This document shows, one piece after another, positions 4,837 to 62,291 of a DNA stretch of 64,000 nucleotides. The notes below the pieces were generated by a model. The model saw only the letters and a list, made by a program, of their open reading frames with translations. It ran no database searches and had not been told where the DNA came from. The stretch comes from an uncultured Candidatus Saccharibacteria bacterium (GTDB lineage: Bacteria > Patescibacteriota > Minisyncoccia > Phycocordibacterales > UBA1006). The stretch is from contig CAYGJA010000001.1 in the NCBI GenBank assembly GCA_964350165.1, forward strand, positions 4,947-68,946. Reading direction: 5' to 3'. Positions within the stretch are counted from its first letter, which is position 1, and every line of letters starts with the position of its first letter. The translations under genes and the position numbers were made by a program.

Positions 4837-4859
4837 ATCAAATAAGGTATAATCCCTCC

Positions 4860-5909
4860 ATGAACTCGACCCAAACCAGTCTTTATCGCAAATATCGACC
4901 CGCTACTTTTGCCGATGTAATTGGCCAAGAGCACGTTGTTTCGGCTCTTGAGAGTGCCATCAAAAAAGAACAGCTAGGGCATGCTTACCTGCTTTACGGC
5001 ACCCGAGGAATCGGAAAAACAACCTTGGCTAGAATTTTTGCAAACGAGATTGGCACCAAACCAGAAGATCTGTATGAAATCGACGCTGCCTCGTATACTG
5101 GAGTAGACAATATTCGAGAATTGAATGCTTCGGTCAAGGCCTTGCCCTATCAATCAAAATACAAAGTCTATATCATCGACGAGGTGCACATGCTTTCTAA
5201 GAGCGCCTTTAACGCACTTCTCAAAACCATCGAGGAACCACCAAGTCACGTTATTTTTATTTTAGCCACCACAGAACTAGAGAAAGTAATTGATACGATT
5301 ATTTCTCGTTGCCAGGTTTTTACCTTGCGCACCCCAACTATAGAAACCTTGCGTACACTCATCGATCACGTAAGCACCGCCGAAGGTGTCACCCTTTCTC
5401 CAGAATCCAAAAACACCATTGCTTTGCTTGGAGATGGGTCTTTTCGTGACACGCTGGGAATTCTCCAAAAAATAATCACCGTCTCGGACGACAAAAAACT
5501 CAGTGATGATGAGGTTCAAAAAATAACCGGTGCTCCAACCGGACAATTATTGCGGAACATTATTAAATCCCTAGGGACAGGAGACACTAATGCCGCCCTT
5601 ACTGCAATCAACCAAGCCAGCACGCAGGGCGTTGAAGCCCGCACATTATCGCTACAAATTGTGCATTACCTACGCTCGCTACTCCTTATTCGTTTTGCTC
5701 CAGACTTGCACCAGAGCCTTACGGATGACCTCGGCAAAGACATGTTTGATTTTTTATATGGACTCCGAGGAAAAGAAGGCCTGCATGCTAATGCAAAATT
5801 CCTGGCCGAAATGCTTGAAGCAACATATGCCACCCAGCGTTCACATACGCCATATCTACCGCTAGAGCTTGCCGTTGTGGCCCACGGCGAATCTATTCAC
5901 AGCCAGTAG
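4860..5909 (+). CDS. dnaX: DNA polymerase III subunit gamma/tau (short form)
   Basis: 349 aa. Starts YRKYRPATFADVIGQEHV and carries Walker A GTRGIGKTT and the clamp-loader box. TATAAT lies 6 nt upstream of the ATG. Confidence 0.85.
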   Translation: MNSTQTSLYRKYRPATFADVIGQEHVVSALESAIKKEQLGHAYLLYGTRGIGKTTLARIFANEIGTKPEDLYEIDAASYTGVDNIRELNASVKALPYQSKYKVYIIDEVHMLSKSAFNALLKTIEEPPSHVIFILATTELEKVIDTIISRCQVFTLRTPTIETLRTLIDHVSTAEGVTLSPESKNTIALLGDGSFRDTLGILQKIITVSDDKKLSDDEVQKITGAPTGQLLRNIIKSLGTGDTNAALTAINQASTQGVEARTLSLQIVHYLRSLLLIRFAPDLHQSLTDDLGKDMFDFLYGLRGKEGLHANAKFLAEMLEATYATQRSHTPYLPLELAVVAHGESIHSQ

Positions 5910-5944
5910 GCTGTTTTGTGTTCCTTGGTTGGTATAATGAAAGC

Positions 5945-6265
5945 ATGAGTTCTTTTCTTCAAGCTGACATTTTCTTTTTTATTACTACGATAGCGGTTAT
6001 TATTTTTGGAGTTATTCTTGGATTTAGTGGATACTATCTCATCAAGATCCTCAAGAACCTACGAGAAATGACCGATACCGTACACGAGGAAGTTCGGCTA
6101 ATAAAACAAGACATCGATGATTTGCGTTCGGGAGTACGCGATCGATTGGAAGTTGCAGAACGATCACCCCTGACCAGTATCATTGGTTCGGTGATATCAC
6201 ATGTTCGAGGCAACAAGCCCAAGCGAAAGACCACCCGCAAACGCACAACATCCAAGAAAAAATAA
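5945..6265 (+). CDS. Small membrane protein with a coiled-coil segment and a Lys/Arg-rich C-terminus (DUF948-like)
   Basis: The track ORF 5918..6265 begins at a non-ATG codon. The first ATG is at 5945 (MSSFLQADIFFF...), 6 nt after a TATAAT. The protein has one TM helix, an amphipathic helix, and a basic tail. Confidence 0.45.
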   Translation: MSSFLQADIFFFITTIAVIIFGVILGFSGYYLIKILKNLREMTDTVHEEVRLIKQDIDDLRSGVRDRLEVAERSPLTSIIGSVISHVRGNKPKRKTTRKRTTSKKK

Positions 6266-6290
6266 GTTAACAGTTATCTTTTTACATATC

Positions 6291-6683
6291 ATGCCCGCAA
6301 AGAAACAAACAACCAAAAAATCAGTAGGAGCAACCGAGGGAATCCTCATTGGCGCTGGCGTAGCCGCGGCCGCTGCAGCTGGCTACTTCCTGTTCGGTCC
6401 CAAAGGAAAACAAAACCGCAAAAAAATTAGCGCCTGGACGATCAAAGCCAAAGGAGAAGTGCTCGAAAAAATAGAAGGCCTTGAGAGTCTTGCCGAGGAC
6501 AAATACCACGCTATCGTAGACCAGGTCACCGCCAAATATATGAAGAGCGCAGACATTGCCAACGAGGACGTCGAAAAGTTCACCAAAGAATTGAAAAAAT
6601 ACTGGAAACATATCGAAACAGACCTGGCTCCGAAAAAGAAAAAAGCTCCAGCCAAGAAAAAACCAGCCACAAAAAAGAAATAA
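6291..6683 (+). CDS. YtxH-like glycine-zipper membrane protein with a histone-H1-like lysine-rich tail
   Basis: Starts MPAKKQTTKK, followed by the glycine zipper GILIGAGVAAAAAAGYFLFGPKG and a C-terminal KKKKAPAKKKPATKKK. The track start at 6201 would overlap the upstream ORF, so the ATG at 6291 is preferred. Confidence 0.5.
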   Translation: MPAKKQTTKKSVGATEGILIGAGVAAAAAAGYFLFGPKGKQNRKKISAWTIKAKGEVLEKIEGLESLAEDKYHAIVDQVTAKYMKSADIANEDVEKFTKELKKYWKHIETDLAPKKKKAPAKKKPATKKK

Positions 6684-6693
6684 TTCAAAATAA

Positions 6694-6887: not shown

Positions 6888-6890
6888 CAA

Positions 6891-7404: not shown

Positions 7405-7818
7405 GTGCTTGTGGATAAGTTTACAAGTATTTTTGCTAGAATTGTAGGCATGGGTAATATTAAAATTAAATTCTTAACCTTCAAAGATCTAAAAAAACTC
7501 ACTCGATATTTTATCAAATCAACAGAAGCAATAGTGCTCGTATCTGCTTTTCGAGTGATTAACATTTTTATTAAAAGAGGAAATTATGCCAACACAATAG
7601 AAACAGTTAGATTTGATGCGATCTTTTTAAATGTCTTTGTAGACATGGCACTATTAGTGGCCCTTATCTACATCTCTCTCGAGGGATACGAATTTGCCAC
7701 GACATTTACAAGTAAAAAATGGGCAGTACTCTTATTTTGTTTGCTGAGTTTACTATTTTTTGTAGCACTCTATATGTCTCTGACATATCTTGGCTTTATT
7801 GCCGAAATTTTTAAATGA
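7405..7818 (+). CDS. Hypothetical membrane protein
   Basis: 137 aa with two C-terminal hydrophobic helices. AT-rich island gene with no recognisable family. Confidence 0.35.
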   Translation: MLVDKFTSIFARIVGMGNIKIKFLTFKDLKKLTRYFIKSTEAIVLVSAFRVINIFIKRGNYANTIETVRFDAIFLNVFVDMALLVALIYISLEGYEFATTFTSKKWAVLLFCLLSLLFFVALYMSLTYLGFIAEIFK

Positions 7819-8816: not shown

Positions 8817-8825
8817 TGCTACAAT
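8817..8825 (+). promoter_or_regulatory. Extended -10 (TGcTACAAT) 7 nt upstream of the NUDIX ATG; leaderless start
   Basis: TGCTACAAT-agccctc-ATG(8833). Confidence 0.45.
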
Positions 8826-8832
8826 AGCCCTC

Positions 8833-9261
8833 ATGAACAAATCAGAACATTTCCCAGAAGCTTTTTATAGAGTAAGTGTGCGTGGCATCATGCGTGACGG
8901 TGACAAATTCCTACTCGGACGCCACGGCAACACCTGGGAGACTTTCGGGGGAGGGTTAGATTTTGGAGAAAATTTACATGAAGCCTTGCGAAGAGAAATT
9001 CTAGAAGAAACAGGCTGTCACCTGACATACATATCAGAACAACCGATACTTGCCCTACCACATATTGTTCATGGAAAAAGAGAAATGGACTGGTTTTATA
9101 ACTTCCCAATCTATTACGAAGTTAAATTTGATATTTCTGAATTTGACCTATCTTTACAATATTCAGAATATAGATGGTTCACGGTCAAAGAAATTCAAAA
9201 TCTAAACGTCTTCGAGGGAGAGGAGGGAATAAAAGATGGTTTTGAGTCTCTTTTAAATTAA
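8833..9261 (+). CDS. NUDIX hydrolase
   Basis: 142 aa with the Nudix box GGGLDFGENLHEALRREILEETG. Cassette 1 of the tRNA-Gln island. Confidence 0.75.
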   Translation: MNKSEHFPEAFYRVSVRGIMRDGDKFLLGRHGNTWETFGGGLDFGENLHEALRREILEETGCHLTYISEQPILALPHIVHGKREMDWFYNFPIYYEVKFDISEFDLSLQYSEYRWFTVKEIQNLNVFEGEEGIKDGFESLLN

Positions 9262-10279: not shown

Positions 10280-10319
10280 GTAAGAACCCCTGGTCCATTA
10301 CTTATGATATGCTCCAAGC

Positions 10320-11378
10320 ATGATTCAAATTAGCTTTAATAAGGTTACCTGGTATTCAAAACTGCTAGCTATCGTTTTATTTGTGGGAACTTTCTTGCTA
10401 GCCTTTTATCTTGGAAACGAAACCGGAAAACTTAGCAACACTACTAACGATCGCGCATCTGAAGGGGTCAACTCAACTAACCCAACGCAAGAAATTTCTG
10501 TCTCAAAATCCTTGGGCACTCAAACCCAACACGAGCCGATTCCTGGCACAGATAAAAAGATTGCCACAGACATACTCACCAGGGAGGTGTACAATTATCT
10601 TTTTTCTCAGAAATGCTATCTCGAAGATTGTAGTCTGTTTTATTCCGCCATGAGTGATATCACAGAGACAGCAGTTAGCACTATAGACAAAGCACATCTT
10701 GTTGTGGGTGGTAAAAACTATGGATTACTTGTAGCTCCTCCGAATAAAAATGAGTACGAAGAGGACTCCACCAGCCCGGGTCCAGTCGGGCCAGTCAGAT
10801 TAACCTTCGTTGATTACACCAACTCGTCAGAACCTTTTGTGGCTCAAACTTTATACCTTGAAGGGCTTATGGCTTGGGCTAGAAATGATTATGAATATTA
10901 TGCGAGTATTTCTATAGACGGAAAATATCCAAACAACGGATTTCTTTCGGGAGATGCATTTTATTTTGGCAACGCTCCATATAATTGCGTCACGCTTTGT
11001 GGCAACAGAATGGATATCTGGTATAGAGTTCTTTTTGACAAGGGCCTACAAAAGTTTATTGCCCAAAAACCGAATTACACACAGCTTGAGTCTATTTTGA
11101 ATAAAAAAAACATCACCATTGATTGGAAAAAAGAACATGGTATATATCTGGGTGGTTTTGAAATCTTTACAACCACAGACCCTCTCACTTTTCTTGCCAT
11201 AAAATATGACGAAGAGACTTTAACCCCAGAATACATTGTTTCTTTCGAAATACTTGAGAAGAATGAATCAGATTATCGATATGAGTGGAACGGTTTAGAT
11301 TCTGATTTCATCCAAAATATCAAATTAATCTACAACATAGATTCAAGCTTAACGCTAGAGGATGTTGTCGGAAACTAA
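10320..11378 (+). CDS. Hypothetical secreted or membrane-anchored protein
   Basis: 352 aa with an N-terminal signal anchor (LLAIVLFVGTFLLAFYLG), an S/T-rich linker, and an aromatic-rich domain. Cassette 3. Confidence 0.5.
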   Translation: MIQISFNKVTWYSKLLAIVLFVGTFLLAFYLGNETGKLSNTTNDRASEGVNSTNPTQEISVSKSLGTQTQHEPIPGTDKKIATDILTREVYNYLFSQKCYLEDCSLFYSAMSDITETAVSTIDKAHLVVGGKNYGLLVAPPNKNEYEEDSTSPGPVGPVRLTFVDYTNSSEPFVAQTLYLEGLMAWARNDYEYYASISIDGKYPNNGFLSGDAFYFGNAPYNCVTLCGNRMDIWYRVLFDKGLQKFIAQKPNYTQLESILNKKNITIDWKKEHGIYLGGFEIFTTTDPLTFLAIKYDEETLTPEYIVSFEILEKNESDYRYEWNGLDSDFIQNIKLIYNIDSSLTLEDVVGN

Positions 11379-11673: not shown

Positions 11674-11805
11674 CCACGGGGGGGCAGAAGCGAAAAAGAT
11701 ACTTCTTATGTTAAGTATAGCATATTTAGCATATTTGTCAAGTACTTCCATCAAAAAAGCGAAAGATTTCAAGGGTCTGAAATTTGCCAGAAAGGACAAG
11801 GCGTA

Positions 11806-12408: not shown

Positions 12409-12417
12409 TGCTATACT
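12409..12417 (+). promoter_or_regulatory. Extended -10 (TGcTATACT) 6 nt upstream of a GTG start
   Basis: TGCTATACT-accatt-GTG(12424). Confidence 0.35.
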
Positions 12418-12423
12418 ACCATT

Positions 12424-13353
12424 GTGAATACAACAAAATCTTCTCTTGTCTTTTTTTTCTCTATCACTATCGTCCTGTCGCTTGGAACCTATTTTGTTTA
12501 TACAAAAAACAACACTGACCCGCTAATCAATAATTCAGCACCTCTCGAAGAAACTGTGGTTGAATACAAAAATACTGATTATGGTTTTACTTTTTCTTTG
12601 CCTGACAATTGGCTGGGATACTCTGTGGAGACCGATACCTGGACAGGGAATCCTCTGGGAAGTAGCGCCACATCAGAAATGGGACCGAAATTTTTAATAC
12701 GTAACCCAAAGTGGACCCACGACACTCCCTACCAAGACATACCAATTCTTGTTTTTACTTTGACCCAATGGGGCGCCTATCAGAATGAAAATTTTGCTGT
12801 GTCTGCAGCCCCTATCCCTGCCACCGAACTAGCTCGGAACAATGTGTACGTTTTTGCTTTGCCACCAAGATGGGATTTTGATTACAAACAGGATTACAAA
12901 GAAGCTCAGGATATTGTTCGAAGCAACCCACTACAAGCATTCGAAATCTCGAGCGCAATGATCCTAGAAGAAGGGCAGTATTGCTATGTTTATCATCACG
13001 AAGGAACCAAAGAAGAACCCTACACCGTAGACGAGCTGGTTGGTATTTATGTGCAAGGAGGAATCGTCGACGGAATGAAAACAGGAACCCAAAGTGGTCC
13101 AGACATGACGAACGGCTACTCGGGAACACTGGCGGGAACTATCCAAAAAAACATGATTGATGTTGTCTTTGCATACACCATCGAAGGTTCTAGCAGTAAA
13201 GAAAAAGAGATATATCGAGTAAAGGACGATCTCAGTGGAATTGAAAAATTACGTTACCCACTAGAAGAAAAAAACGGAGTGCTCGTGCCCGACAGAACCA
13301 AAGAATTTGAAGCTCTTTTTTATGCTCAAATTAGTTGCGAAACTTCAGACTAA
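12424..13353 (+). CDS. Hypothetical secreted protein (probable GTG start)
   Basis: The track ORF 12217..13353 has no ATG before its hydrophobic segment. The in-frame GTG at 12424 gives a signal anchor (SLVFFFSITIVLSLGTYFVY). No recognisable family. Confidence 0.45.
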   Translation: MNTTKSSLVFFFSITIVLSLGTYFVYTKNNTDPLINNSAPLEETVVEYKNTDYGFTFSLPDNWLGYSVETDTWTGNPLGSSATSEMGPKFLIRNPKWTHDTPYQDIPILVFTLTQWGAYQNENFAVSAAPIPATELARNNVYVFALPPRWDFDYKQDYKEAQDIVRSNPLQAFEISSAMILEEGQYCYVYHHEGTKEEPYTVDELVGIYVQGGIVDGMKTGTQSGPDMTNGYSGTLAGTIQKNMIDVVFAYTIEGSSSKEKEIYRVKDDLSGIEKLRYPLEEKNGVLVPDRTKEFEALFYAQISCETSD

Positions 13354-13429
13354 TCAATAAAAAAGAGAGTGGAAGGTATTTACACCAGTTACACCTTGTA
13401 TTTTTGACATTAGAAAAAAGGGGTGTAAA

Positions 13430-14113
13430 ATGACTTTCATGAATACCGTATTAACACCCAAACAAAAAGAAGTTCTCGACCTGATTGTTAATTTTTCTAG
13501 AAAAAATAATGCGACTACGCCTACTTTGGATTGGTTACGTCAAGAAATTGGTTGCAAATCAATCAACAGCGTTGTTAAACATCTAAAAGCCCTGGAAACA
13601 AAAGGCGTCATTGCTCGTCGCAAACACGCCAAAGAAAACAACATTGTCATCTTGGAACAAAAAAGCATAAGGGGCCCTCAGATGATATCGGTGCCAGTTA
13701 TTGCTTCGGTTGGTTGTGATAATATGAGCGTCTTTGCCCAAGAAAACACTGACGAATATCTAACAGTAGACGCTAGCCTGATCGGCAAAAAACGCCTCGT
13801 GGCCATTCGAGCCGAGGGCGACAGCATGAATGATGCTGGCGTAGAAAACGGAGATTATGCCCTGGTAGAGATTCTCGAGAATGGCGAACCAATCAAAAAT
13901 GGCGAAATCGTAACGGCCATCATTGACGGTATGGCAGTACTCAAAAGATACGAAAAAAAAGACGGTGTAGTTATCTTGTACCCACAATCCCGAAACCCTC
14001 AACACAAACCTATCGTTGTTAATCAATCCTTCCGAATTATAGGTCGACTATGGCAAATGATCCCAGGGTTTGCCGAGGATGATTTTACCTTTGTCCCCGA
14101 GCCTAGTTTTTAA
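13430..14113 (+). CDS. lexA: LexA repressor (wHTH + S24 peptidase)
   Basis: 227 aa. The N-terminal wHTH is TPKQKEVLDLI...LKALETKGVIAR. The C-terminus has a Ser-Lys dyad (AEGDSMNDAG; MAVLKRYEKKDG). Confidence 0.85.
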   Translation: MTFMNTVLTPKQKEVLDLIVNFSRKNNATTPTLDWLRQEIGCKSINSVVKHLKALETKGVIARRKHAKENNIVILEQKSIRGPQMISVPVIASVGCDNMSVFAQENTDEYLTVDASLIGKKRLVAIRAEGDSMNDAGVENGDYALVEILENGEPIKNGEIVTAIIDGMAVLKRYEKKDGVVILYPQSRNPQHKPIVVNQSFRIIGRLWQMIPGFAEDDFTFVPEPSF

Positions 14114-15807: not shown

Positions 15808-15816
15808 TGCTATTAT
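15808..15816 (+). promoter_or_regulatory. Extended -10 (TGcTATTAT) 6 nt upstream of the GIY-YIG ATG
   Basis: TGCTATTAT-cacagg-ATG(15823). Confidence 0.45.
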
Positions 15817-15822
15817 CACAGG

Positions 15823-16092
15823 ATGAGCAATGACAGCACCGAAACCAAATACAGTGTGTATATCTTACGTTGCGCAGACGGCACCCTCTATACCGGTTCG
15901 ACTAACGACCTGACCAAGCGCCTCCACGCACACAATCACACTAAACAAGGAGCAAAATACACCCGAGGCAGAAGGCCGGTCCAATTGCTCTATTCTAAAT
16001 CTTTCTCAGACATTGGGTTAGCTCTAAGAAGAGAGGCGGAAATCAAAAAAATGAGCCGGAAAGAAAAACTCAATCTCATTAATTCACGATAA
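15823..16092 (+). CDS. GIY-YIG domain protein (UPF0213/YhbQ-like)
   Basis: 89 aa starting YSVYILRCADGTLYTGSTNDLTKRLHAHN. Confidence 0.7.
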   Translation: MSNDSTETKYSVYILRCADGTLYTGSTNDLTKRLHAHNHTKQGAKYTRGRRPVQLLYSKSFSDIGLALRREAEIKKMSRKEKLNLINSR

Positions 16093-18266: not shown

Positions 18267-18304
18267 ACATTGCACGAGGAACCTTCTGGTATACTGCCAG
18301 GACC

Positions 18305-19978
18305 ATGACACAAGCAGAAGCCCTCCAAATCCTGAAAATGGGCCACAACGTATTCCTGACCGGACAACCGGGAGCAGGAAAAACCTATCTCCTCAATCAA
18401 TACATCGATATTCTCAAAAAACACAAAATCGAAGTAGCCGTGACCGCTTCGACTGGTATTGCCGCTACCCACATCGGTGGTACCACTATCCACTCCTGGT
18501 CTGGAATCGGCATCAAACAAAACCTGAATGCCAGACAGCTCGATGATTTGCTGGATCGGGAATATCTAGTTAAAAGAATCAGCAAAACCGAAGTGCTCAT
18601 CATCGATGAGGTTTCCATGCTGGATGCTGTCATGCTCGACGACATTAACAGCATTTGCAAAATCATGCGTCGAAGTGAAGAACCCTTTGGCGGACTTCAG
18701 GTGGTACTGGTTGGAGATTTTTTTCAGTTGCCACCCGTAAACAGAACCGGGGAGCCGATACCACCAGCCTATGCCTCGAGGGCTTGGCAAGAAGCACGTA
18801 TGGCTATTTGTTATCTATCAGAACAGTATCGACAAAAAGACGGGGTGCTCAATACCATCCTCAAGCAAATCCGTGAAAACAATGTCGAACAAGATATGTA
18901 TGACGAATTACTACGGACCACCAGTCGCACTTTTGATGATGGAATCGAGCCAGTACGGCTGTTCACCCATAATGCCGACGTAGACCAACTGAACAATAGC
19001 CGGCTAGCCGAACTCGATACCGAAATCAAGACTTTTGGTATGAGTAGCAAAGGAAAAGATAATCATGTGGAACGACTTATCAAATCCTGCCTGTCGCCAG
19101 AACATCTCCAACTAAGAGAAGGTGCCGTTGTAATGTGCACCAAAAATAACTTTGAACTGGGCTACGTCAATGGAACCATGGGCAAAATAATCGCCTTTGA
19201 TTCCAAAACAAAATTCCCAATTATCGAAACCACCGAAGAAAAAAGATTCACCATTACACCCGCCGAATGGGCAATAGAAGACAACGGCAAATTAATTGCT
19301 TCGATTGAGCAAATCCCGCTTCGTCTCGCCTGGGCAATTACCGTCCACAAAAGCCAGGGCATGAGCATCGACCGCGCCGAAATAGACTTGTCTCAAACTT
19401 TTGAATACGGCCAGGGGTATGTAGCCCTATCTCGACTGCGCGACATCAACGGGTTACGTCTTTTGGGGCTCAACGACGTAGCACTCCAGGTCAACCCCGA
19501 AATCATGGCCGCCGACAAAAAATTCTTGAAATTATCAGACGCGGCCAGGAGTAGGCTGAGTGAATTTAGCGATCAAGACCTCGAAACCAAGCACCATAGT
19601 AATATCATCGAACGTGGCGGGGTAATCAAGCCAAGCAAAAAAGAAGCAGTAGGGGAGCAGAAACCAAAAAAAACAGCGTCTCGAGAAAAAACCATGAACT
19701 TTATTTTGCAAACAAAAACTATTCCTCAGATTGCAAAAGAGAGGAGTCTAACCGAAGCAACAGTGATGAGCCATATCGAGGATCTCCTCTTAGACAACCG
19801 ACTGACCCAAAATGACATCGCATATCTGCAACCAAAGAACAAACAATTTACCAAAGGGCTTGAAAAAGTTCGCCAAGCTTTTGAGCAGACAGATAGCAAA
19901 AACCTAGGACCGGTAAAGGCTATCCTAGGTGATGCGTATGATTTCGATGAAATCAGGTTTTTTCGATTGTTTCTCTAA
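18305..19978 (+). CDS. PIF1/RecD-like ATP-dependent DNA helicase with a C-terminal HTH
   Basis: 557 aa with Walker A GQPGAGKTYLL, the PIF1-type motifs (VTASTGIAATHIGGTTIHSW; IDEVSML; VLVGDFFQLPPV), and a C-terminal helix-turn-helix. Confidence 0.75.
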   Translation: MTQAEALQILKMGHNVFLTGQPGAGKTYLLNQYIDILKKHKIEVAVTASTGIAATHIGGTTIHSWSGIGIKQNLNARQLDDLLDREYLVKRISKTEVLIIDEVSMLDAVMLDDINSICKIMRRSEEPFGGLQVVLVGDFFQLPPVNRTGEPIPPAYASRAWQEARMAICYLSEQYRQKDGVLNTILKQIRENNVEQDMYDELLRTTSRTFDDGIEPVRLFTHNADVDQLNNSRLAELDTEIKTFGMSSKGKDNHVERLIKSCLSPEHLQLREGAVVMCTKNNFELGYVNGTMGKIIAFDSKTKFPIIETTEEKRFTITPAEWAIEDNGKLIASIEQIPLRLAWAITVHKSQGMSIDRAEIDLSQTFEYGQGYVALSRLRDINGLRLLGLNDVALQVNPEIMAADKKFLKLSDAARSRLSEFSDQDLETKHHSNIIERGGVIKPSKKEAVGEQKPKKTASREKTMNFILQTKTIPQIAKERSLTEATVMSHIEDLLLDNRLTQNDIAYLQPKNKQFTKGLEKVRQAFEQTDSKNLGPVKAILGDAYDFDEIRFFRLFL

Positions 19979-21480: not shown

Positions 21481-21489
21481 TGCTAAAAT
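21481..21489 (+). promoter_or_regulatory. Extended -10 (TGcTAAAAT) 7 nt upstream of the ATG at 21497
   Basis: TGCTAAAAT-agccacc-ATG. Confidence 0.45.
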
Positions 21490-21496
21490 AGCCACC

Positions 21497-22135
21497 ATGA
21501 AAATCCTAGCTATTTCTGGGTCTCCCTCAGCGGGGCGCAATTCCGACAGCATGTTGACGCACTTTCTTGCTGGGGCAGGATCTGTACCCGGCATCGAAAC
21601 AGAACGTGTTTTTTTGCGTGATATTCATATTGATCATTTCCATTTTGATAACCGCTTAGGCCCAATGCCCCATGAGGGAGACTTTGCTAGGCTTTGCCAA
21701 ATTATTGAAAAAGAAGCCACGGGTATTGTGATTGCTACGCCTACGTATAATTTTGGAGTACCTGCCCATCTCAAAAATTTTATTGATCGCATGCGTTTTT
21801 TTGGTCTTGATTTCAGCAAACAAAACAAAATCGGCCAGCCAGTAGGGAAATTACAACACCTCAAGGCATATTTTCTAGTATCTGGTGGCACACCCAACTG
21901 GGCTCAAAAAATACTCTTCTTTGCTTTTCCTCCTTTTTGGCTACGGGGAATTTTCCTGTACCACGGGGCCCACGTAATGGGTGCTTATTACAGCGGCGAT
22001 TTACACACCATGGAAAACAAAAAAGTATTGGCGAAATGCCATAAAGAAGGAGTCACCTATGCCAAAAAGCTCCTGGCCGGCAAACGCCATGGAATCCTGG
22101 AGCGAATCTTTTGGAGACCACCACAATCGCAATAA
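21497..22135 (+). CDS. NADPH-dependent FMN reductase-like flavoprotein
   Basis: Starts MKILAISGSPSAGRNSDSM with a flavodoxin-like fold. The start is reset from the track's 21437. Confidence 0.55.
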   Translation: MKILAISGSPSAGRNSDSMLTHFLAGAGSVPGIETERVFLRDIHIDHFHFDNRLGPMPHEGDFARLCQIIEKEATGIVIATPTYNFGVPAHLKNFIDRMRFFGLDFSKQNKIGQPVGKLQHLKAYFLVSGGTPNWAQKILFFAFPPFWLRGIFLYHGAHVMGAYYSGDLHTMENKKVLAKCHKEGVTYAKKLLAGKRHGILERIFWRPPQSQ

Positions 22136-26718: not shown

Positions 26719-27279
26719 TTATTCAAAGATTGCAGACCAATAGTCAATCAATATTTGCCGTGCGCCTTGATTTTTTAATTCTGTTTTGCCAAGCCAGGCA
26801 ACACCTTTCTCGACATCGTATTCGTCTGGATCTAAATTGCGACTAATCAATTTTGCCTCTTCGGTAGAGGGTTCTACCACAAATACATAATGTAGATCAT
26901 GCCGACCATGATCATGTGGTGCCTCTGCGCGGTACGACCAGATAACCTCGCTGAGAGTCAGAAAAGCAAAGCGCTCTAGGGGAAACTCTAGGCTGGTTTC
27001 TCGATGAAAAGAGCGCTGAGCAGCCGTGACAGCTGGTTCTCCGGCTCGTCTTCGACCGCCAATCACCCACAAACCTTCGGCTGGTTTCCGTGTGCGCATA
27101 ACCAGGCCGATTTTCTTGCTCTCTCTATCAACCAGCACCACGTCGCTATTGACCACCACCAAAGCTGAAATAGCTGCCGCGTATTCTTCATCAGTAATAC
27201 GCACGGCAGGAATATGATGATTGTCTGGGTTGTAGAACGGTGGCAAGACTGGTTCATTCATGGCTACAAAATACCGCAA
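26719..27279 (-). CDS. NUDIX hydrolase
   Basis: 186 aa with the Nudix box GGRRRAGEPAVTAAQRSFHRETSLEF. Confidence 0.7.
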   Translation of the reverse strand: MRYFVAMNEPVLPPFYNPDNHHIPAVRITDEEYAAAISALVVVNSDVVLVDRESKKIGLVMRTRKPAEGLWVIGGRRRAGEPAVTAAQRSFHRETSLEFPLERFAFLTLSEVIWSYRAEAPHDHGRHDLHYVFVVEPSTEEAKLISRNLDPDEYDVEKGVAWLGKTELKNQGARQILIDYWSAIFE

Positions 27280-27872: not shown

Positions 27873-27889
27873 ACTATACAATTACTCAT

Positions 27890-28288
27890 ATGTTTTTCTG
27901 GAAGCGAGCGAAACCAAAACCCAAAAGGAAACCACCACGGATGACAAAAGCGCGGCGGCACTATCTGGCACACCGGGAAACAGCCCGCACTCTGATCCAT
28001 TCCAAAGTAGAACATTGGAACCAGTTTTATCATTACCCAATCGGTCAAATCCGAACCAAAGACGTCAAAACCAGATGGGGGAGCTGTTCTTCGCTCGGGA
28101 ATCTGAACTTTAATTACAAAATCCTCTTTCTACCCGAACATTTGCAGGACTATATTGTGGTCCACGAATTATGCCATTTGCGTCAGATGAACCACGGACC
28201 CAATTTCTGGAACCTTGTAGCGGAAACAATTCCTGAATATAAAAAATGCATTGCCGAGCTTGGACGCATGCATATAAAAATCACGTAA
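27890..28288 (+). CDS. DUF45/YgjP-like zinc metallohydrolase (HExxH)
   Basis: 132 aa with TRWGSCSS...YIVVHELCHLRQMNHGPNFW. Confidence 0.65.
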   Translation: MFFWKRAKPKPKRKPPRMTKARRHYLAHRETARTLIHSKVEHWNQFYHYPIGQIRTKDVKTRWGSCSSLGNLNFNYKILFLPEHLQDYIVVHELCHLRQMNHGPNFWNLVAETIPEYKKCIAELGRMHIKIT

Positions 28289-28338
28289 AAAATGTATCAA
28301 AAAATAAAATAAAGCGACTCTTGTGGTATTATTTTTAT

Positions 28339-29100
28339 ATGAATATGCAAAAGCTCATTATCCCAGCTTTACTCATCCTGGCGCTGACCGGTATTGTCTA
28401 TCGTGCAACCAGGCCCCATCTGGAACCAGAAAAATACGTAAAACAGGAAAAAGAAGAAGCTCCCAAGGAAACCATCAGCGGCATGTTGACTTATGGGGCC
28501 GAAGTGCGCAGTTTTGTGCCTTGTGGAGTTGCCGAAAGAGACGCTGGTTGGATGACCTTTGGTGACCCCAATGTTGCCAGTGATCTGCGGCAAGTATACG
28601 AAGAAGCCACTGCCGGCAGGCTACCGTACACACCTGTTTTTGCTACCATAGTAGCCGACATTGCTGATACTCCGGCCGAAGGCTTTGGCGCAGATTATGC
28701 CACCACCTACATCGTCGAAAAAATCCAAGAAATTGACGCCAATCGCACCTGCCAAAGCAATGATATCACTCTACACACGCCACTATCGGGAAGCTCGATT
28801 CAATCGCCCCTGATTATCACCGGGGAAGCTCGTGGAACCTGGTTCTTCGAAGGAAGCATGAGCGTCGTTCTGACTAATTGGGATGGGGAAATCATTGCCG
28901 AAGGAGTCCTCCAAGCTGACGGCGAATGGATGACCGAATCATTGGTGGCCTTTTATGGTGAATTAGAATACGAAACGCCAGCCTATGGTGAACGAGGACA
29001 CTTGATTATCCAAGCCGCCAATCCGTCTGGCTTGCCAGAGCATGACAAAGCCCTCGAAATCATTGTGCAATTTTCGGAACAACAAAATGAAAATGAGTAA
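28339..29100 (+). CDS. Hypothetical secreted protein, possibly with a Gmad2-like Ig domain
   Basis: The ATG at 28339 (MNMQKLIIPALLILALTG) gives a signal peptide. The C-terminal beta-rich domain reads LIITGEARGTWFFEGSMSVVL. The track start at 28246 overlaps the upstream gene. Confidence 0.4.
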   Translation: MNMQKLIIPALLILALTGIVYRATRPHLEPEKYVKQEKEEAPKETISGMLTYGAEVRSFVPCGVAERDAGWMTFGDPNVASDLRQVYEEATAGRLPYTPVFATIVADIADTPAEGFGADYATTYIVEKIQEIDANRTCQSNDITLHTPLSGSSIQSPLIITGEARGTWFFEGSMSVVLTNWDGEIIAEGVLQADGEWMTESLVAFYGELEYETPAYGERGHLIIQAANPSGLPEHDKALEIIVQFSEQQNENE

Positions 29101-30986: not shown

Positions 30987-31037
30987 ACAAAACACACCCA
31001 ACAAAAAAGAAATAACGCTGCGTGCTACCATATCAGT

Positions 31038-33133: not shown

Positions 33134-33139
33134 AGATCC

Positions 33140-36472: not shown

Positions 36473-36551
36473 ATCCAGAATAATACCATTATCTTGAGTT
36501 TTCTATCCACCACAAAAAAAGAAAAGTAAGCACTCATGCTATTATTTTAGA

Positions 36552-40376: not shown

Positions 40377-41072
40377 ATGAAAAAAACCACAGAAAATAAA
40401 AATGTTATTGAAATAAAAAACCTCGTTCGCACTTTTACCAATGGAAAAGTTGTAAGCAAGGTACTAAGAGGGATTTCTTTGACCATAAAAGAAGGGGAGT
40501 TCGTATCGATCATGGGAAAATCAGGAGCAGGCAAGAGCACCCTCATGTACCAAATGAGCGCCCTCGATCATCCAACTTCAGGAAACCTAAGAGTGGCCGG
40601 AGCAAATCTAGAAACCTTATCCTCAAAAGAGCGCACTATTTTTCGACTTTACAACCTGGGGTATGTTTTTCAGGATTATGCACTTCTGCCAGAACTAAGT
40701 GCGGAAGAAAACATATCCCTGCCACTAATTATGCAAGGTAAAAGCAGAGAAGAAGCGAGCAAAATATCAATAGAAGCCCTGGAATCTGTCGGGCTTGGTG
40801 ACCGAGCAAAAAACAAACCTAGCCAACTTTCAGGAGGAGAGCAACAAAGAGTCAGTATTGCTCGCGCCATTGCCCACAAACCAAAAGTCCTTTTTGCAGA
40901 CGAACCAACCGCGAACCTAGACACCGCTTCCAGCAAACAAGTGCTCCGTGTTTTTCAAAAACTACACCAGGAAGGCCTAACCATCGTGATGGTTACTCAT
41001 GAAAAAGACTATGCCGATTATGCCGAGAGAATTATCTTTGTAAAAGACGGAGAAATTGTAAGTGCGCTATAA
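40377..41072 (+). CDS. ABC transporter ATP-binding protein (MacB/LolD-type)
   Basis: Has GKSGAGKST, LSGGEQQRVSIARA, and the D-loop. Confidence 0.85.
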   Translation: MKKTTENKNVIEIKNLVRTFTNGKVVSKVLRGISLTIKEGEFVSIMGKSGAGKSTLMYQMSALDHPTSGNLRVAGANLETLSSKERTIFRLYNLGYVFQDYALLPELSAEENISLPLIMQGKSREEASKISIEALESVGLGDRAKNKPSQLSGGEQQRVSIARAIAHKPKVLFADEPTANLDTASSKQVLRVFQKLHQEGLTIVMVTHEKDYADYAERIIFVKDGEIVSAL

Positions 41073-41081
41073 TATACAGTA

Positions 41082-41462
41082 ATGAATTGGCCGATTGCAT
41101 ACATCCGCTGGCACTATAGTACTGCCTATCGAGACATCACTCGTATTTGGTTCAATTACCTGTGGTTTTTGTTTCATTTTTTTTCAATAGCGCTTCTGCT
41201 CAAGACCTTTTTCCAGCCATTCCGAAGAATTCAGGAAGAAAAAACAAAGACTTTCAATCTCCAGGAAATTGGAGAAAATCTGGCCATAAACCTTATGATG
41301 CGCCTGGTTGGCATGCTTCTTCGCCTAGTGATTTTGTCTCTTGGGCTAGTCATTATATTTTTATTCTTTTTAGGAGGTCTTATTTTTTATGTTTTTTGGA
41401 CAGCTTTTCCCGTGGCTGCTTTGATACTGATATTGCTGAGCCTTAATGTACTAACGATATGA
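41082..41462 (+). CDS. Small membrane protein
   Basis: 126 aa and 3 TM. Overlaps the next gene by 4 nt. Confidence 0.35.
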   Translation: MNWPIAYIRWHYSTAYRDITRIWFNYLWFLFHFFSIALLLKTFFQPFRRIQEEKTKTFNLQEIGENLAINLMMRLVGMLLRLVILSLGLVIIFLFFLGGLIFYVFWTAFPVAALILILLSLNVLTI

Positions 41463-45023: not shown

Positions 45024-45038
45024 GCTATACTAAAAGAC

Positions 45039-46763
45039 ATGAGAGGAAAGAAACATCGTCATGCGGAAATCCTTCCAGATGAAATACTGCTTGATGGACA
45101 AAACAAGCCAGGATTTAACACTCACCAAATGGAGGGTGTTATTGAGATGCCTTTTTTGAGCACCACCCACTTAGTGGTAAAAATTATTTTCTTGGCTATC
45201 TTTTTAATTATTGCTGGAAAATTATTTTCTCTTCAGGTTGTGTCAGGGCAAGAAATGCTTGCCGTGAGCGAACGAAACCGTCTTCGCCAAGTACCCATCT
45301 TTAGTGAAAGGGGAATCATCTATGACCGGAACAATATTGAACTGGCCTGGAATAGTCGCACAAACGAAGATGTTCCTTTTTCTTTAAGAGAATACATAGA
45401 TCAGGGGGGATTTAGTCACGTTTTGGGTTATGTCGGTTATCCAACCAAAGACGACGCTGGTTTTTATTGGCGAAATGAAATTGTTGGAAGAGAGGGGGTT
45501 GAAGCTATTCTCGACAGCACTCTCAGTGGACAAAATGGTCAACAATTAGTAGAAACAGACGCACTGCTAAACATTACCGAATCAAACACTGTTCGACCAG
45601 CCGAAAACGGAAGCAATGCCCATCTCACCATAGACGCAAGACTCCAGGGGGCGATTTACCAATCCATTCGAGAGCATGCCGAAGAGTATGGCTACCAGGG
45701 AGGTGTCGGCGTTGTGCTGGATGTTGATTCTGGAGAAGTGCTCACCCTGACCAATTATCCAGAATATAGTTCATCTGTTATGTCAGATGGATCTGACAGA
45801 GAAACCATCGCTAGTTATTTTTCTTCTTCACAAAAACCTTTTCTTAACCGAGCTCTGGGGGGGCTGTATACACCAGGGTCAACCATAAAGCCCTTTATCG
45901 CTGCCGGAGCACTACACGAAGGAATTGTCACAGCAAAAACACAAATAAACAGCGTTGGTCAAATTGAAGTCCCTAACCGTTACAACCCAGATGATCCCGC
46001 CATCTTTAGAGATTGGAAAACAGGTGGGCACGGACTCACCGATGTCAAAAAAGCAATAGCAGATTCGGTGAATACTTTCTTCTATGCAGTTACCGGAGGC
46101 TACAAAAACATCCAAGGCATGGGAATCACTGGCATAGAAAAATATGTCCGTGCATTTGGATTGGGGAGTGAAACAGGTATTGATCTAGGCAAAGAAGCCA
46201 CCGGGATTGTTCCGACACCAGAATGGAAAAAAAGGGTTTTTAACGGAGACGATTGGCGACTAGGAGACACTTATATTACATCCATTGGGCAATTTGGTTT
46301 CCAGGTAACCCCATTGCAGATGGCGCGAGGTATTGCCGCTGTAGCAAACTCTGGAAAATTAGTAACCCCTCAAGTAATAGCAAAAACCCCAGAAGTATCC
46401 TACATCGAAGAACCCATTTCCACCCAACACTATCAGATTGTTCGAGATGGCATGCGCCAAACCGTCACCGAAGGAACTGCTCTGAGCTCATTGAATGTGC
46501 CCTATATTGAAATAGCAGCCAAAACAGGTACCGCCCAAGTTGGTGCTGACAATGAATTCATTAACTCTTGGGTGGTTGGTTTTTTTCCATATCAAGACCC
46601 TCGATATGCTTTTGCAATTGTTATGGAAAGAGGTCCAAACGAAGAAAGAACAAGGGGCGCTGCCTGGGTTTTCAGAAACACCATGAACAAACTCCAAGAA
46701 TCTGATCCGGAATTTTTTGATCAATTTGCGTCTCCAGAAGAATTTTTCGTTGACCAGCCATGA
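45039..46763 (+). CDS. Penicillin-binding protein 2 (class B transpeptidase)
   Basis: 574 aa with STIKPF (SxxK), SVNTFF (SxN), and KTGTAQ (KTG). Confidence 0.8.
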   Translation: MRGKKHRHAEILPDEILLDGQNKPGFNTHQMEGVIEMPFLSTTHLVVKIIFLAIFLIIAGKLFSLQVVSGQEMLAVSERNRLRQVPIFSERGIIYDRNNIELAWNSRTNEDVPFSLREYIDQGGFSHVLGYVGYPTKDDAGFYWRNEIVGREGVEAILDSTLSGQNGQQLVETDALLNITESNTVRPAENGSNAHLTIDARLQGAIYQSIREHAEEYGYQGGVGVVLDVDSGEVLTLTNYPEYSSSVMSDGSDRETIASYFSSSQKPFLNRALGGLYTPGSTIKPFIAAGALHEGIVTAKTQINSVGQIEVPNRYNPDDPAIFRDWKTGGHGLTDVKKAIADSVNTFFYAVTGGYKNIQGMGITGIEKYVRAFGLGSETGIDLGKEATGIVPTPEWKKRVFNGDDWRLGDTYITSIGQFGFQVTPLQMARGIAAVANSGKLVTPQVIAKTPEVSYIEEPISTQHYQIVRDGMRQTVTEGTALSSLNVPYIEIAAKTGTAQVGADNEFINSWVVGFFPYQDPRYAFAIVMERGPNEERTRGAAWVFRNTMNKLQESDPEFFDQFASPEEFFVDQP

Positions 46764-46772
46764 TTTAGCCGT

Positions 46773-46778
46773 TAGAAT
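46773..46778 (+). promoter_or_regulatory. -10-like TAGAAT 6 nt upstream of the greA ATG
   Basis: TAGAAT-tcaccc-ATG(46785). Confidence 0.35.
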
Positions 46779-46784
46779 TCACCC

Positions 46785-47258
46785 ATGTCTACAGAAGAAT
46801 CAATTTACATATCTCCAGAAAAAAAAACCGAACTTCAATTGGAACTAAAGGATCGAAAAGAAACCATCCGACCAGAAATTCTCCACAAGCTTCAATTTGC
46901 AAAATCTTTGGGTGATTTATCTGAAAATGCCGAATATCATGACGCCAGAGAAAGACAAGGTAAGAACGAATCAAGAATTCAGCAAATAGAACACATTCTA
47001 AAAAATGCAGTTTTGGTAGAAAAACAAACTGATGGAATCGTTGGCTTAGGGTCTGAAGTAATCATCAACAAAATCGAATCCCCCGAAGAAGAAAAAAAAT
47101 ACACCATCGTGGGTCCTGCTGAAGCAGATATGGCTATCGGTAAATTATCTAGCGAGTCACCACTAGGACAGGCTCTTTTGGGTGGCAAAGAAGGGGAGAC
47201 GGTGGCCTTTGAATCTCCAAGAGGAACCACCCATTACAACATAATCAAAGTTTCTTAG
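46785..47258 (+). CDS. greA: Transcription elongation factor GreA
   Basis: 157 aa with an N-terminal coiled coil carrying the acidic tip (DLSENAEYH), and a C-terminal FKBP-like domain. Confidence 0.85.
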   Translation: MSTEESIYISPEKKTELQLELKDRKETIRPEILHKLQFAKSLGDLSENAEYHDARERQGKNESRIQQIEHILKNAVLVEKQTDGIVGLGSEVIINKIESPEEEKKYTIVGPAEADMAIGKLSSESPLGQALLGGKEGETVAFESPRGTTHYNIIKVS

Positions 47259-57322: not shown

Positions 57323-58312
57323 TCAAATCTCTTTATTTCGCATTCTCACTAATTCAGTCTCTTGTATAGAATCGCCTTGGTCACCAAAAAATAAACTTTC
57401 AAGCACGGACCAGAGATAGAGCGAGGATGAGATAACAATTATCCAATGGGCTTGTAATATATAAGTTTCTACAGCAAAAACCCCAACTCCCACTAAGAGC
57501 GCAAGAAGAAGGTGAATAGTTTTTGCATCCTCTCTCACATACTCGATCCCTTTGCGTCCACGATTCTCGGTGTGAAGAAATGCCAAAGCCAAAATCTGCA
57601 AGGAAGATATGACAACGGGAACAATATAGGCACCCTCTCTTGTTTCATAAGCAATAACACCCGTACCAATAGCCGATGCGACGAGCGACAGATACACAAA
57701 CATTTTTATTGCGCTGAATTGGAAGGGGGTTGGTTTTTTTGAGGTAAAAGCAAAGAAAAGCCCGCACGCTAATCCAAAAAATACGAACGGGGGTAAGAGA
57801 TTAAAAAGTCCACCATCATTCCATATTTCTAAAATAAGACTCAAAACCTCTCCCCGTAAAGGTGTTAGCCCCAACAAGAGTATCCATATTAGTGAGAGTA
57901 AAAAAACGGTCGATTCAGTGATTTTGGGCAAAAATCCTAATTTCTTTGCAAGCCCTTGCATGTAAAAGTGACTGTTGTCCCCAATACGACGTGTTTTATT
58001 GGGATAGTAATGCATCCAAGGCGCAACGATTCCTAAAAGCAACCCACCAAAATAAACAGCAAAACGTACTCCAAGTCCAACCCCTAGCTCTTGCAATTGA
58101 GTTGCCATGTAATACATACCGAAACTCAAGGTAACCAAGATGGCCACACCAATACCGCGCTTAATACGCAACCCTTTCTGACGGTCTTTTCTCATGAATC
58201 TAGTATATCGCAACCAGTGAGACTCAAGAATACTTAAATGATGAACTCTTATTTTACCCAATTTTCTAACGTAACAATAAGGCTTTTGATACCCAAAAGT
58301 TCGGAAAACCAA
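57323..58312 (-). CDS. Hypothetical polytopic membrane protein (about 8 TM); true start probably internal
   Basis: 329 aa. The N-terminal 15 residues (MVFRTFG...) are just the reverse complement of repeat copy C with a TTG start. The likely real start is a downstream ATG. Confidence 0.45.
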   Translation of the reverse strand: MVFRTFGYQKPYCYVRKLGKIRVHHLSILESHWLRYTRFMRKDRQKGLRIKRGIGVAILVTLSFGMYYMATQLQELGVGLGVRFAVYFGGLLLGIVAPWMHYYPNKTRRIGDNSHFYMQGLAKKLGFLPKITESTVFLLSLIWILLLGLTPLRGEVLSLILEIWNDGGLFNLLPPFVFFGLACGLFFAFTSKKPTPFQFSAIKMFVYLSLVASAIGTGVIAYETREGAYIVPVVISSLQILALAFLHTENRGRKGIEYVREDAKTIHLLLALLVGVGVFAVETYILQAHWIIVISSSLYLWSVLESLFFGDQGDSIQETELVRMRNKEI

Positions 58313-60962: not shown

Positions 60963-61129
60963 CCCAGGACACCTATATAATAAATACCTCGATTTTAGAT
61001 AACTTAATCGAGGTATTTGTGTTTTAATTAACTACCGAAACAAAAAAACTGAACATCCGGAAGATAAAATATTCTAGTTCTGTTATGATAATCAAACATC
61101 ATTAATTATATTCTTAATTCAATTTTTCC

Positions 61130-61831
61130 ATGTCAGAACACCATCACCACGAAAACAATCATTCTTCAAAAGAAGAGCACAGGCATACTAGCAAAAAAAA
61201 TGCCGCCGCTTTTGATTTTTCAAAAATAATGCAACCCAAAATTCTTGCGCCCATAATTACCGCAACTGTTGTGGTGATTGTTTTTCTGTTGCTCCTTTCC
61301 AACGGCTGGATTGTGGCAGCAACCGTAAACGGTTCGGCCATTAGCCGACACGAAGTACGAAATTTAGTAGAAAAAGATTCTGGCGCAGATGCTTTGCGTG
61401 GACTCATCTCCCAAAAACTACTAGACCAAGAAATCAAAGACAAAAAAATATCAGTTACTGAGGCTCAGATTGATGAAGAAATAGCAACCATTAGTGACCT
61501 CTTGGAAAAACAAGGACTTACTTTTGCCGAAGCTATCGAAGGGCAGGGCCTAACCATGAATGAGGCCAGAAAGCAGGTCAAACGACAACTCGAACTAGAA
61601 GGATTATTTGCGGATAGCGTCATTGTGAGCGAAGAAGAAATCAATGCTTTTATCGAAAGCAACCAGGTGCCCCTACCAGAAGACGAGGGCGAAAAAGCAG
61701 AACTATTGTCCAGCGTGCGTGAGCAAATGGAACAAGAAAAACTCTACAATGAATATATTGCCAAAGAAGCCGAACTACGAGAACAAGCAAGCATCAAGTT
61801 TTTTGTAGACTACCTAGACAGCAAAGAATAG
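61130..61831 (+). CDS. Hypothetical membrane-anchored protein with a SurA-N-like helical domain
   Basis: 233 aa with a His-rich N-terminus, one TM, then LISQKLLDQEIKDKKISVTEAQIDEEI, which is chaperone-like. Confidence 0.35.
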   Translation: MSEHHHHENNHSSKEEHRHTSKKNAAAFDFSKIMQPKILAPIITATVVVIVFLLLLSNGWIVAATVNGSAISRHEVRNLVEKDSGADALRGLISQKLLDQEIKDKKISVTEAQIDEEIATISDLLEKQGLTFAEAIEGQGLTMNEARKQVKRQLELEGLFADSVIVSEEEINAFIESNQVPLPEDEGEKAELLSSVREQMEQEKLYNEYIAKEAELREQASIKFFVDYLDSKE

Positions 61832-61901
61832 CTCTTGAAAAAAGATACAAAGAAAACACACACCTCTCGTGTGTGTTTTCTTTTTTATAAATTTTGCCCT
61901 C

Positions 61902-61910
61902 TGCTATACT
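61902..61910 (+). promoter_or_regulatory. Extended -10 (TGcTATACT) 6 nt upstream of the ATG at 61917
   Basis: TGCTATACT-ttgacc-ATG. Confidence 0.45.
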
Positions 61911-61916
61911 TTGACC

Positions 61917-62291
61917 ATGGAAAAATCTCCAAAAAAAATATTGGTAATCGAAGCTGAGCGCCCTCTGGCCAGAGCCTTCGAACTTAAACTTGAGCACAAT
62001 GGCTACGAAGTAACCATGGTTAACACGGGAAAAGAAGGCATTAGAAAATTAGGAAGCGAGAATTACCAAATCGTCATCACAGATCTAGCCATGCCAGAAA
62101 TGAATGGATTCGAAATTATCGAACATATCAGGAAACACAACCAAGATCTCCCGATTATCGTACTTGCCAATAGTAACCAAAAAATAGAAATTCAAAAAAT
62201 TCACAATCTTGGCATAGAGGACTGCTTTATAAAATCAAGCGCCCCCATCGCCAACATCATAAAACACATTGATAATCAACTCAAAAAATAA
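61917..62291 (+). CDS. Response-regulator receiver domain protein (stand-alone)
   Basis: Starts KKILVIEAERPLA, then ...IVITDLAMPEMNGFEII...KIHNLG. No output domain. Confidence 0.65.
   Translation: MEKSPKKILVIEAERPLARAFELKLEHNGYEVTMVNTGKEGIRKLGSENYQIVITDLAMPEMNGFEIIEHIRKHNQDLPIIVLANSNQKIEIQKIHNLGIEDCFIKSSAPIANIIKHIDNQLKK

Follow-up and report, generated by a model that had tools for sequence, protein, structure and literature searches.

The leaderless gene layout is documented by differential RNA sequencing in Mycobacterium, Corynebacterium, Streptomyces and Deinococcus, and extended -10 promoters, recognized through contacts of sigma-70 region 3.0, are familiar from Escherichia coli and Gram-positive bacteria. 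TA-like signals about 12 bp before the translation initiation site, with the consensus TANNNT, have been described for leaderless genes (Zheng et al., 2011, PMC3160421), and in the group C genomes of GeneMarkS-2, 25-50% of operons are described as having a Pribnow box 6-8 nt ahead of their first gene (Lomsadze et al., 2018, PMC6028130). Here we analysed a 64-kb window (the whole stretch of DNA under study, positions 4,947 to 68,946 of contig CAYGJA010000001.1 from an uncultured Candidatus Saccharibacteria bacterium, numbered from its first letter) in which about one third of the genes carry a TANNNT hexamer, often in the form TGnTANNNT, with its first T at position -12 or -13 relative to the start codon (Table 1). 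These hexamers are very probably sigma-70-type extended -10 promoters set in a leaderless register, an arrangement in which transcription would start at the AUG and translation would be leaderless.

The layout resembles that of the TA-led and group C genes of Actinobacteria and Deinococcus-Thermus, as far as the sources above describe them, in placing the first T of TANNNT about 12 nt upstream with a spacer of 6-8 nt, in marking the first genes of operons, in the share of genes or operons served (20-50%) and in allowing start calls to be corrected. It differs in that the remaining genes of those phyla carry a Shine-Dalgarno (SD) sequence, in a dual model, whereas here no gene class does; in that the window is of mid to low GC with an informative TAtaaT and a near-obligatory TG, where the high-GC phyla have a bare TAnnnT; and in its host phylum, the Patescibacteria, which is not among the phyla surveyed in the parts of those sources drawn on here. 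With the extended -10 promoters of E. coli and Gram-positive bacteria it shares the TG one base before the hexamer; most sites have no recognisable -35 element, which fits a class in which that element is dispensable, and greA, which lacks the TG, has a good -35 element, as compensation between promoter elements predicts; in model organisms, however, such promoters normally drive leadered mRNAs, whereas most of those found here appear to stand in the exact leaderless register. SD-poor genomes (Bacteroidetes and Cyanobacteria, classed as 'group B/atypical', and part of the Parcubacteria) likewise have SD cores at random frequency and A-rich, weakly structured starts, but a -10 box at -12 is not characteristic of them. 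Part of the Parcubacteria has been reported to be without an anti-SD sequence (Tsurumaki et al., 2022, PMC9297842), in a study silent on leaderless mRNAs. That study comes nearest to the present case: in the literature searched, no paper links leaderless mRNAs to the candidate phyla radiation (CPR) or Patescibacteria, although some CPR genomes may already be classed as group C. The mechanism itself is already known; what is new is its Patescibacteria host and the same -12 peak in 59 other CPR loci.

An earlier note on this DNA listed ten such hexamers with their start codons, all of which lie exactly where it placed them; its gene names are also right, by Pfam for the DnaX-like, NUDIX, GIY-YIG, FMN reductase, 2-Hacid_dh, GreA and Response_reg proteins and by separate confirmation for enolase. 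Its count of "at least ten" understated the scale: we found 11 further instances (1557(-), 7450, 10320, 13439, 27261(-), 27890, 28339, 31038, 36472(-), 41082 and 45039), which roughly doubles the number, and the pattern, far from being local, appears to extend across the phylum. Our curated set holds 21 genes with the hexamer at -12 or -13, to which one at -15 (18305) and one with a doubtful TTG start (58261(-)) may be added. The spacing between hexamer end and start codon is 6 nt (first T at -12) in 14 genes and 7 nt (-13) in seven. The start codons of the 21-gene tally are 19 ATG, one GTG and one doubtful TTG, and ATG serves 64 of 68 genes overall.

Across the whole window, the bare pattern occurs no more often than in dinucleotide shuffles (TANNNT-N6-ATG, 33 versus 32.4; TANNNT-N7-ATG, 34 versus 33.2), and the loose hexamer alone therefore proves nothing. 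Since the claim holds only when conditioned on gene starts, these were fixed blindly, as the first ATG of every long non-overlapping open reading frame (ORF; n = 69), with offsets -70 to -20 as background. With these starts, 11 genes had TANNNT at -12 and seven had it at -13, against a mean of 1.8 per background offset, i.e., 18 of 69 genes where 3.7 were expected (Poisson 8e-8). For the TG-extended TGNTANNNT (TGnTANNNT), the two offsets together gave 11 genes where chance predicted 0.24 (2e-15). Internal ATGs carried the hexamer at the same offsets in only 16 of 833 cases (Fisher 7e-13). The stricter TGNTANNNT was also in excess without any choice of starts, with eight TGNTANNNT-N6-ATG sites versus 2.0 expected and six of the N7 version versus 2.1, above all or nearly all shuffles, and 13 of these 14 sites are gene starts. 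Conditioned on gene starts, the signal is strong.

The bases flanking the hexamer identify it further. The 21 curated sites were chosen by TANNNT only, blind to the TG bases, yet 19 of them have G two positions ahead of the hexamer (p = 2e-11) and 15 have T one position further upstream. Of the six members without TG, one, greA, has TTGACC with a 17-nt spacer. Judged by these bases, the sites are extended -10 promoters and not mere AT-richness. TGnTAnnnT also pairs with a perfect TTGACA, 16-18 nt away, at three promoters of the leadered kind (10220-10191(-), 11741-11714(-) and 54539-54567(+)), and is therefore the promoter consensus of the organism. The leaders at these canonical promoters measure about 65 nt before a 257-aa gene at 54638 without Pfam match (54539-54637) and about 35 nt before a Macro-domain gene (10220-10157(-)); strong promoters of this type suggest that the organism makes leadered mRNAs as well. 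The density of TGNTANNNT is 4.6-fold higher in intergenic DNA, which makes up 8.3% of the window, and of 25 intergenic copies lying at most 150 nt before a gene, 15 are at a distance of 12-13 and one at 15. With transcription start sites (TSSs) in mind, a hexamer at -12 to -7 puts the A of the ATG 7 bp past the -10 element, and the modal TSS across 49 bacteria is likewise 7 bp downstream of the -10 element (PMC12641261).

The window has 43% GC and tightly packed genes, chiefly on the plus strand. Among the matches listed for its enolase and for a ClpB/ClpC-like ATPase, the named relatives are only Patescibacteria group, Paceibacterota, Nomurabacteria and similar metagenome-assembled genomes (MAGs) at no more than 45% identity, and closer enolase matches are on a few metagenome contigs (85%, 56% and 52% identity); by these similarities, the host is a deep lineage of the CPR (Patescibacteria). 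The comparison covered a relative of about 85% identity in two 21-kb pieces (L002 and L092) and two distant syntenic loci of 50-56% identity (L005 and L006). All 12 orthologue pairs with the closer relative retain the hexamer, either unshifted or displaced by 1 nt; its three non-anchored positions are identical in 9-11 of the 12 pairs and the G of the TG in 10, while positions further upstream show about 53% identity and spacer sequences vary freely. In the distant relatives, the -10 box is present for most of these genes, often at -14 to -16 and sometimes at -21, which suggests that over longer distances the leader length drifts between zero and a few nucleotides.

In the mechanism that we propose, a -10 hexamer at -12 to -7 or -13 to -8, counted from the A of the start codon and in most cases with no clear -35 element, would direct RNA polymerase to start at the A of the AUG or 1 nt before it. 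The resulting mRNA would have no 5' untranslated region and no ribosome-binding site, and the ribosome with initiator tRNA would bind the 5'-terminal AUG directly, as in the leaderless pathway of Actinobacteria, Deinococcus and archaea. This layout would serve about 40% of the genes not tightly coupled to an upstream gene, while the others, whether leadered first genes or operon-internal ones, would be initiated without SD, through A-rich, weakly structured starts or through coupling. Every in silico test that was run fits the leaderless reading put forward by the earlier note, with geometry as the ground for leaderless expression; nor does the window offer an SD sequence by which a leadered mRNA from these promoters could be served.

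Several observations weigh against this reading. Matches to a -35 element are not enriched upstream of the leaderless-type -10 boxes (the best match averages 2.9 of 6 positions, versus 2.7 at random TANNNT sites), so that promoter strength would come from the TG and the -10 box only. The set also has weak members: TATTTT at 27273, TATGCT at 10308 and 58261 with its TTG start. In N. lyticus, the one member of the CPR with mapped TSSs cited in the sources consulted, the distance from -10 element to TSS was reported as unusually variable (PMC12641261). The folding of the 5' end does not separate leaderless-type genes from the others: in both, the first 40 nt fold more weakly than gene interiors do (-2.6 and -3.0 versus -5.0 kcal/mol). 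Finally, upstream gaps are only 9-39 nt at several sites (dnaX, 41082, 45039, greA, eno and GIY-YIG), most of them with no terminator-like hairpin found in front, and the main mRNA could therefore be a read-through polycistronic one, with the internal promoters secondary.

Taken further, this last point leads to an account in which the hexamers are real internal promoters, yet expression proceeds mainly from read-through messages by internal SD-independent initiation and leaderless mRNAs are minor or conditional. It can draw on the equally unstructured start regions of both gene classes, and, because all window genes are without SD, internal SD-less initiation must exist anyway. It has more difficulty with the sharp -12 register, which would not be selected if the transcripts were unimportant, as a promoter for leadered mRNA could sit anywhere, and which is kept in orthologues while the surrounding sequence drifts. 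In addition, several sites do follow terminators: terminator-like hairpins with T-runs lie immediately upstream of the 5945 gene and the YgjP-like gene, and a hairpin with T-run before 61902 was spotted by eye (Table 1). We consider the read-through account unlikely.

The absence of SD sequences leaves room for a different upstream signal, and upstream regions are A/T-rich, so that the hexamer might act in translation instead, as a non-SD ribosome-binding site or S1 standby site on a leadered mRNA in the style of Bacteroidetes 'group B'. An SD-like core is found in none of the 21 motif genes, in agreement with the earlier note, and GGAG, GAGG or AGGA occurs at -18 to -5 in three of 68 genes, where chance would give 5.3; an E. 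coli control counted alike gave 24 of 42. The genes outside the leaderless type are no different: in no gene class of the window are SD-like cores more frequent than expected by chance. Regions upstream of starts are depleted in G, which stands at -1 in only two of 68 genes, and operon-internal genes have A-rich upstream regions (39% A). The organism appears, on these counts, to run wholly on SD-independent initiation, and leadered and operon-internal genes, which are also without SD, must then rely on A-rich, weakly structured starts or on coupling. A translational signal, however, should precede operon-internal genes too, and absence before such genes is what separates a promoter from a ribosome-binding site in GeneMarkS-2, as its authors describe it (PMC6028130). 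The motif is present in none of the 15 genes that overlap the upstream gene or follow it by less than 9 nt, and in 21 of 50 (42%) with larger gaps (Fisher 0.0014). By this count, the motif is tied to the starts of predicted transcription units; taken as a continuous variable, the upstream gap shows no significant difference between genes with and without the motif (Mann-Whitney p = 0.13). Moreover, the conserved G of the TGn is a hallmark of contact with sigma-70 region 3 and not of an AU-rich enhancer, and other sites of the window combine this consensus with a correctly spaced TTGACA. A role of the hexamer in translation is, in our view, very improbable.

Beyond this genome, an enolase scan yielded at least 80 loci from other genomes; the 59 of them with CPR titles, comprising 839 ORFs, were run through the same blind pipeline. 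Here, 60 ORFs have the first T of TGNTANNNT at -12, while 20 have it at -13 and 13 at -14, over a background of 0-7 per offset. TANNNT starts at -12 in 128, compared with about 50 at in-frame offsets, which reflect stop-codon periodicity, and about 28 out of frame. The enrichment persists against frame-matched controls in every CPR group of reasonable sample; for genomes with Paceibacteria-type names it is 103 versus 24, and 54 versus 3 for the extended form. The motif is strongest in these Paceibacteria-type genomes (28% of ORFs) and weaker or absent in some Falkowbacteria and unspecified loci. There was no -12 peak in five archaeal and Bacilli loci of the same scan, nor in the E. coli control. 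SD-like cores were present at 8% overall across the CPR loci, about the random rate measured in the window, and the leaderless fraction did not correlate significantly with the SD-like fraction across these loci (Spearman -0.19, p = 0.18), SD being rare throughout the sample. Three orthologues of the 12424 gene from other CPR lineages have TATAAT or CATAAT at -12, a layout shared by most of the genes around them.

Chance, in the form of common AT-rich hexamers, in-frame TAA or TAG supplying 'TA' at multiples of three, and starts chosen to fit, deserves hardly any credence: it could point to the shuffle-level frequency of bare TANNNT-N6/7-ATG and to the 3-nt periodic TANNNT background upstream of ORFs in the CPR survey, but chance and stop-codon periodicity were rejected by the blind starts and the frame-matched controls, TAA or TAG opens just four of the 21 hexamers, and the E. 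coli, archaeal and Bacilli controls show no peak. Taking window and survey together, we lean, by a little, towards leaderless initiation from TGn-extended -10 promoters being the standard mode at first cistrons in much of the Patescibacteria, accompanied by complete disuse of SD.

The earlier note had also expected the geometry to help with choosing start codons, and this is borne out at several genes. The public call for the 12424 gene runs for 362 aa from ATG 12265, whereas eight homologues (295-308 aa) align their Met exactly on GTG 12424, supporting a protein of 309 aa and marking 12265-12423 as over-extended; as the homologues agree with the GTG, the geometry predicted the right start where the gene caller had failed. 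The start of LexA was moved to 13439 because ATG 13430 overlaps the -10 box, and L092 does not have that ATG. In L002, the dehydrogenase call (region 13377-13409) was trimmed by 15 codons, from 348 aa to the conserved 333-aa start. In most members, no other start codon lies between the ATG and the preceding in-frame stop, and Pfam profiles begin close to the proposed N termini (residue 1 for FMN_red, 4 for LexA_DNA_bind in LexA, 7 for GreA, 8 for Response_reg, 9 for GIY-YIG and 12 for NUDIX). Public gene calls share the protein starts of eno, greA, dnaX and the dehydrogenase. The over-extended N termini suggest that leaderless starts cause systematic start errors in the annotation of CPR MAGs.

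Table 1. Putative leaderless-register promoters in the window, with their counterparts in related loci (offsets are relative to the start codon)
Gene or product	Position	Strand	-35 element and spacer	-10 element	Distance to start	Start codon	Remarks	Relatives
DnaX-like gene (4860-5909)	4848..4862	+		TATAAT 4848-4853	6 nt	ATG 4860	349-aa start also in public gene calls	L092: TATAAT at -12, spacer differs
106-aa protein (5945-6265)	5930..5947	+		TGGTATAAT	6 nt	ATG 5945	terminator-like hairpin 5899-5914 just upstream	L092: TGGTATACT at -12
122-aa protein (7450-7818)	7434..7452	+		TGCTAGAAT	7 nt	ATG 7450		
NUDIX hydrolase (8833-9261)	8817..8835	+		TGCTACAAT	7 nt	ATG 8833		
352-aa protein	10305..10322	+		TGATATGCT	6 nt	ATG 10320	weaker hexamer	
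309-aa protein (12424-13353)	12409..12426	+		TGCTATACT	6 nt	GTG 12424		
LexA (13439-14113)	13404..13441	+	TTGACA 13404, 16 nt	TAAAAT 13426-13431	7 nt	ATG 13439		L092: same promoter, ATG 13 nt past hexamer start
GIY-YIG protein (15823-16092)	15808..15825	+		TGCTATTAT	6 nt	ATG 15823		
PIF1-like helicase	18287..18307	+		TGGTATACT	9 nt	ATG 18305	borderline; hexamer at -15, implied leader about 3 nt	
FMN reductase (21497-22135)	21481..21499	+		TGCTAAAAT	7 nt	ATG 21497		L002: motif and spacing identical
YgjP-like protein	27877..27892	+		TACAAT	7 nt	ATG 27890	terminator hairpin 27838-27861 and T-run directly upstream	
Gmad2-domain protein	28324..28341	+		TGGTATTAT	6 nt	ATG 28339		hexamer at -12 in L002 (TGGTATCAT) and L006 (GGTATTCT)
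DUF2807 protein	31023..31040	+		TGCTACCAT	6 nt	ATG 31038		L002 identical; hexamer at -15 in L005 and L006
Enolase	33125..33142	+		TGTTACAAT	6 nt	ATG 33140		L002: TGGTACAAT at -13, overlapping the end of the upstream gene
2-Hydroxyacid dehydrogenase	36537..36554	+		TGCTATTAT 36537-36545	6 nt	ATG 36552		L002: TGGTATTAT at -12 of conserved MEIL start; L005 and L006: hexamer at -14
126-aa protein	41068..41084	+		TATAAT 41068 / TAATAT 41070		ATG 41082	upstream gene only 9 nt away	
PBP2-type transpeptidase	45026..45041	+		TATACT	7 nt	ATG 45039		
GreA	46750..46787	+	TTGACC, 17 nt	TAGAAT 46773	6 nt	ATG 46785		
Receiver-domain protein	61902..61919	+		TGCTATACT	6 nt	ATG 61917	hairpin and T-run at about 61858-61887 upstream	
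DprA	1555..1573	-		TGATAAACT	7 nt	ATG 1557		L092: TGATAGACT at -13
Second NUDIX protein	27259..27273	-		TATTTT	6 nt	ATG 27261	weak hexamer, no TG	
DsbB	36470..36488	-		TGGTATTAT	7 nt	ATG 36472	divergent from the 36552 promoter	L002: TGGTAATAT at -12
Doubtful member	58259..58276	-		TGTTACGTT	6 nt	TTG 58261	inside the 94-nt repeat family	

One of the canonical promoters noted above lies in a 427-nt gap without credible ORF (11379-11805, chiefly 11470-11741(-)). The promoter (11741..11714 (-)) matches sigma-70 at 11 of 12 positions and has the TG (TTGACA-16-TGcTATACT), and two terminator-like hairpins lie in the gap. The predicted RNA of about 200-240 nt from the 11.4-11.7 kb gap (11707-11470, minus strand) folds at -108 kcal/mol, with a z of -8.2 versus shuffles; Rfam returned only noise for it (E about 0.1) and nhmmer found no homologue in any of the fetched loci. 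The region 11470-11741(-) is thus a candidate for an unannotated structured noncoding RNA. It belongs to a segment of about 6.5 kb (about 6890-13370) that adjoins tRNA-Gln, is not present in the 85% relative L092 and contains DUF2726, an AbiU2-type HEPN protein, NUDIX and a Macro-domain protein besides the candidate RNA. Two repeats of 42-46 nt, at 8745-8786 and 10237-10282, correspond to one and the same site in L092. From this layout, the segment is probably a genomic island at a tRNA gene, perhaps with a role in defence. Its DUF2726 ORF starts at 6891, 2-3 nt past the 3' end of the tRNA-Gln (6887/6888; region 6817-6893). If the two are co-transcribed, 3' processing of the tRNA would produce an almost leaderless mRNA, a second route to such a message.

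Two further regions contain repeats that involve catalogued starts. A direct repeat of 78 nt with 85% identity (26603-26680 and 27835-27912) comprises the terminator hairpin, the T-run, TACAAT, the ATG and the first eight codons of the YgjP-like gene; its upstream copy (26603-26680) opens a 15-codon ORF only. It is a duplicated terminator-promoter-start module, probably the scar of a 1.2-kb insertion with the NUDIX(-) gene and a 156-aa gene. Downstream of tRNA-Glu, three interleaved repeat families occupy 55400-59600, among genes without Pfam match plus one DUF2726 gene: 184 nt in two copies (55507/58886), 94 nt in three (57122/58251/59474) and 53 nt in three (55587/57220/58966). This looks like a variable or mobile region that reuses intergenic modules.

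For this genome, the layout provides a practical start-codon rule, by which three calls were corrected (12424, LexA 13439 and the L002 dehydrogenase), and its geometry marks transcription-unit boundaries where only 8% of the DNA is intergenic. Translation initiation in the CPR has been little studied and the ribosomes of these bacteria are reduced, and a dominant leaderless regime combined with disuse of SD would be a concrete, testable answer to how it proceeds. If this is true, a huge phylum with reduced ribosomes would be the third major bacterial lineage of leaderless users and, unlike Actinobacteria and Deinococcus, one without SD back-up; systematic N-terminal mis-calls would then be expected in thousands of CPR MAGs whose starts were called by SD-based models. 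Should leaderless initiation prove dominant, it would bear on arguments for such initiation as ancestral, and it would have consequences for gene calling in CPR metagenome bins and, in cultivated Saccharibacteria, for heterologous expression and genetic tools.

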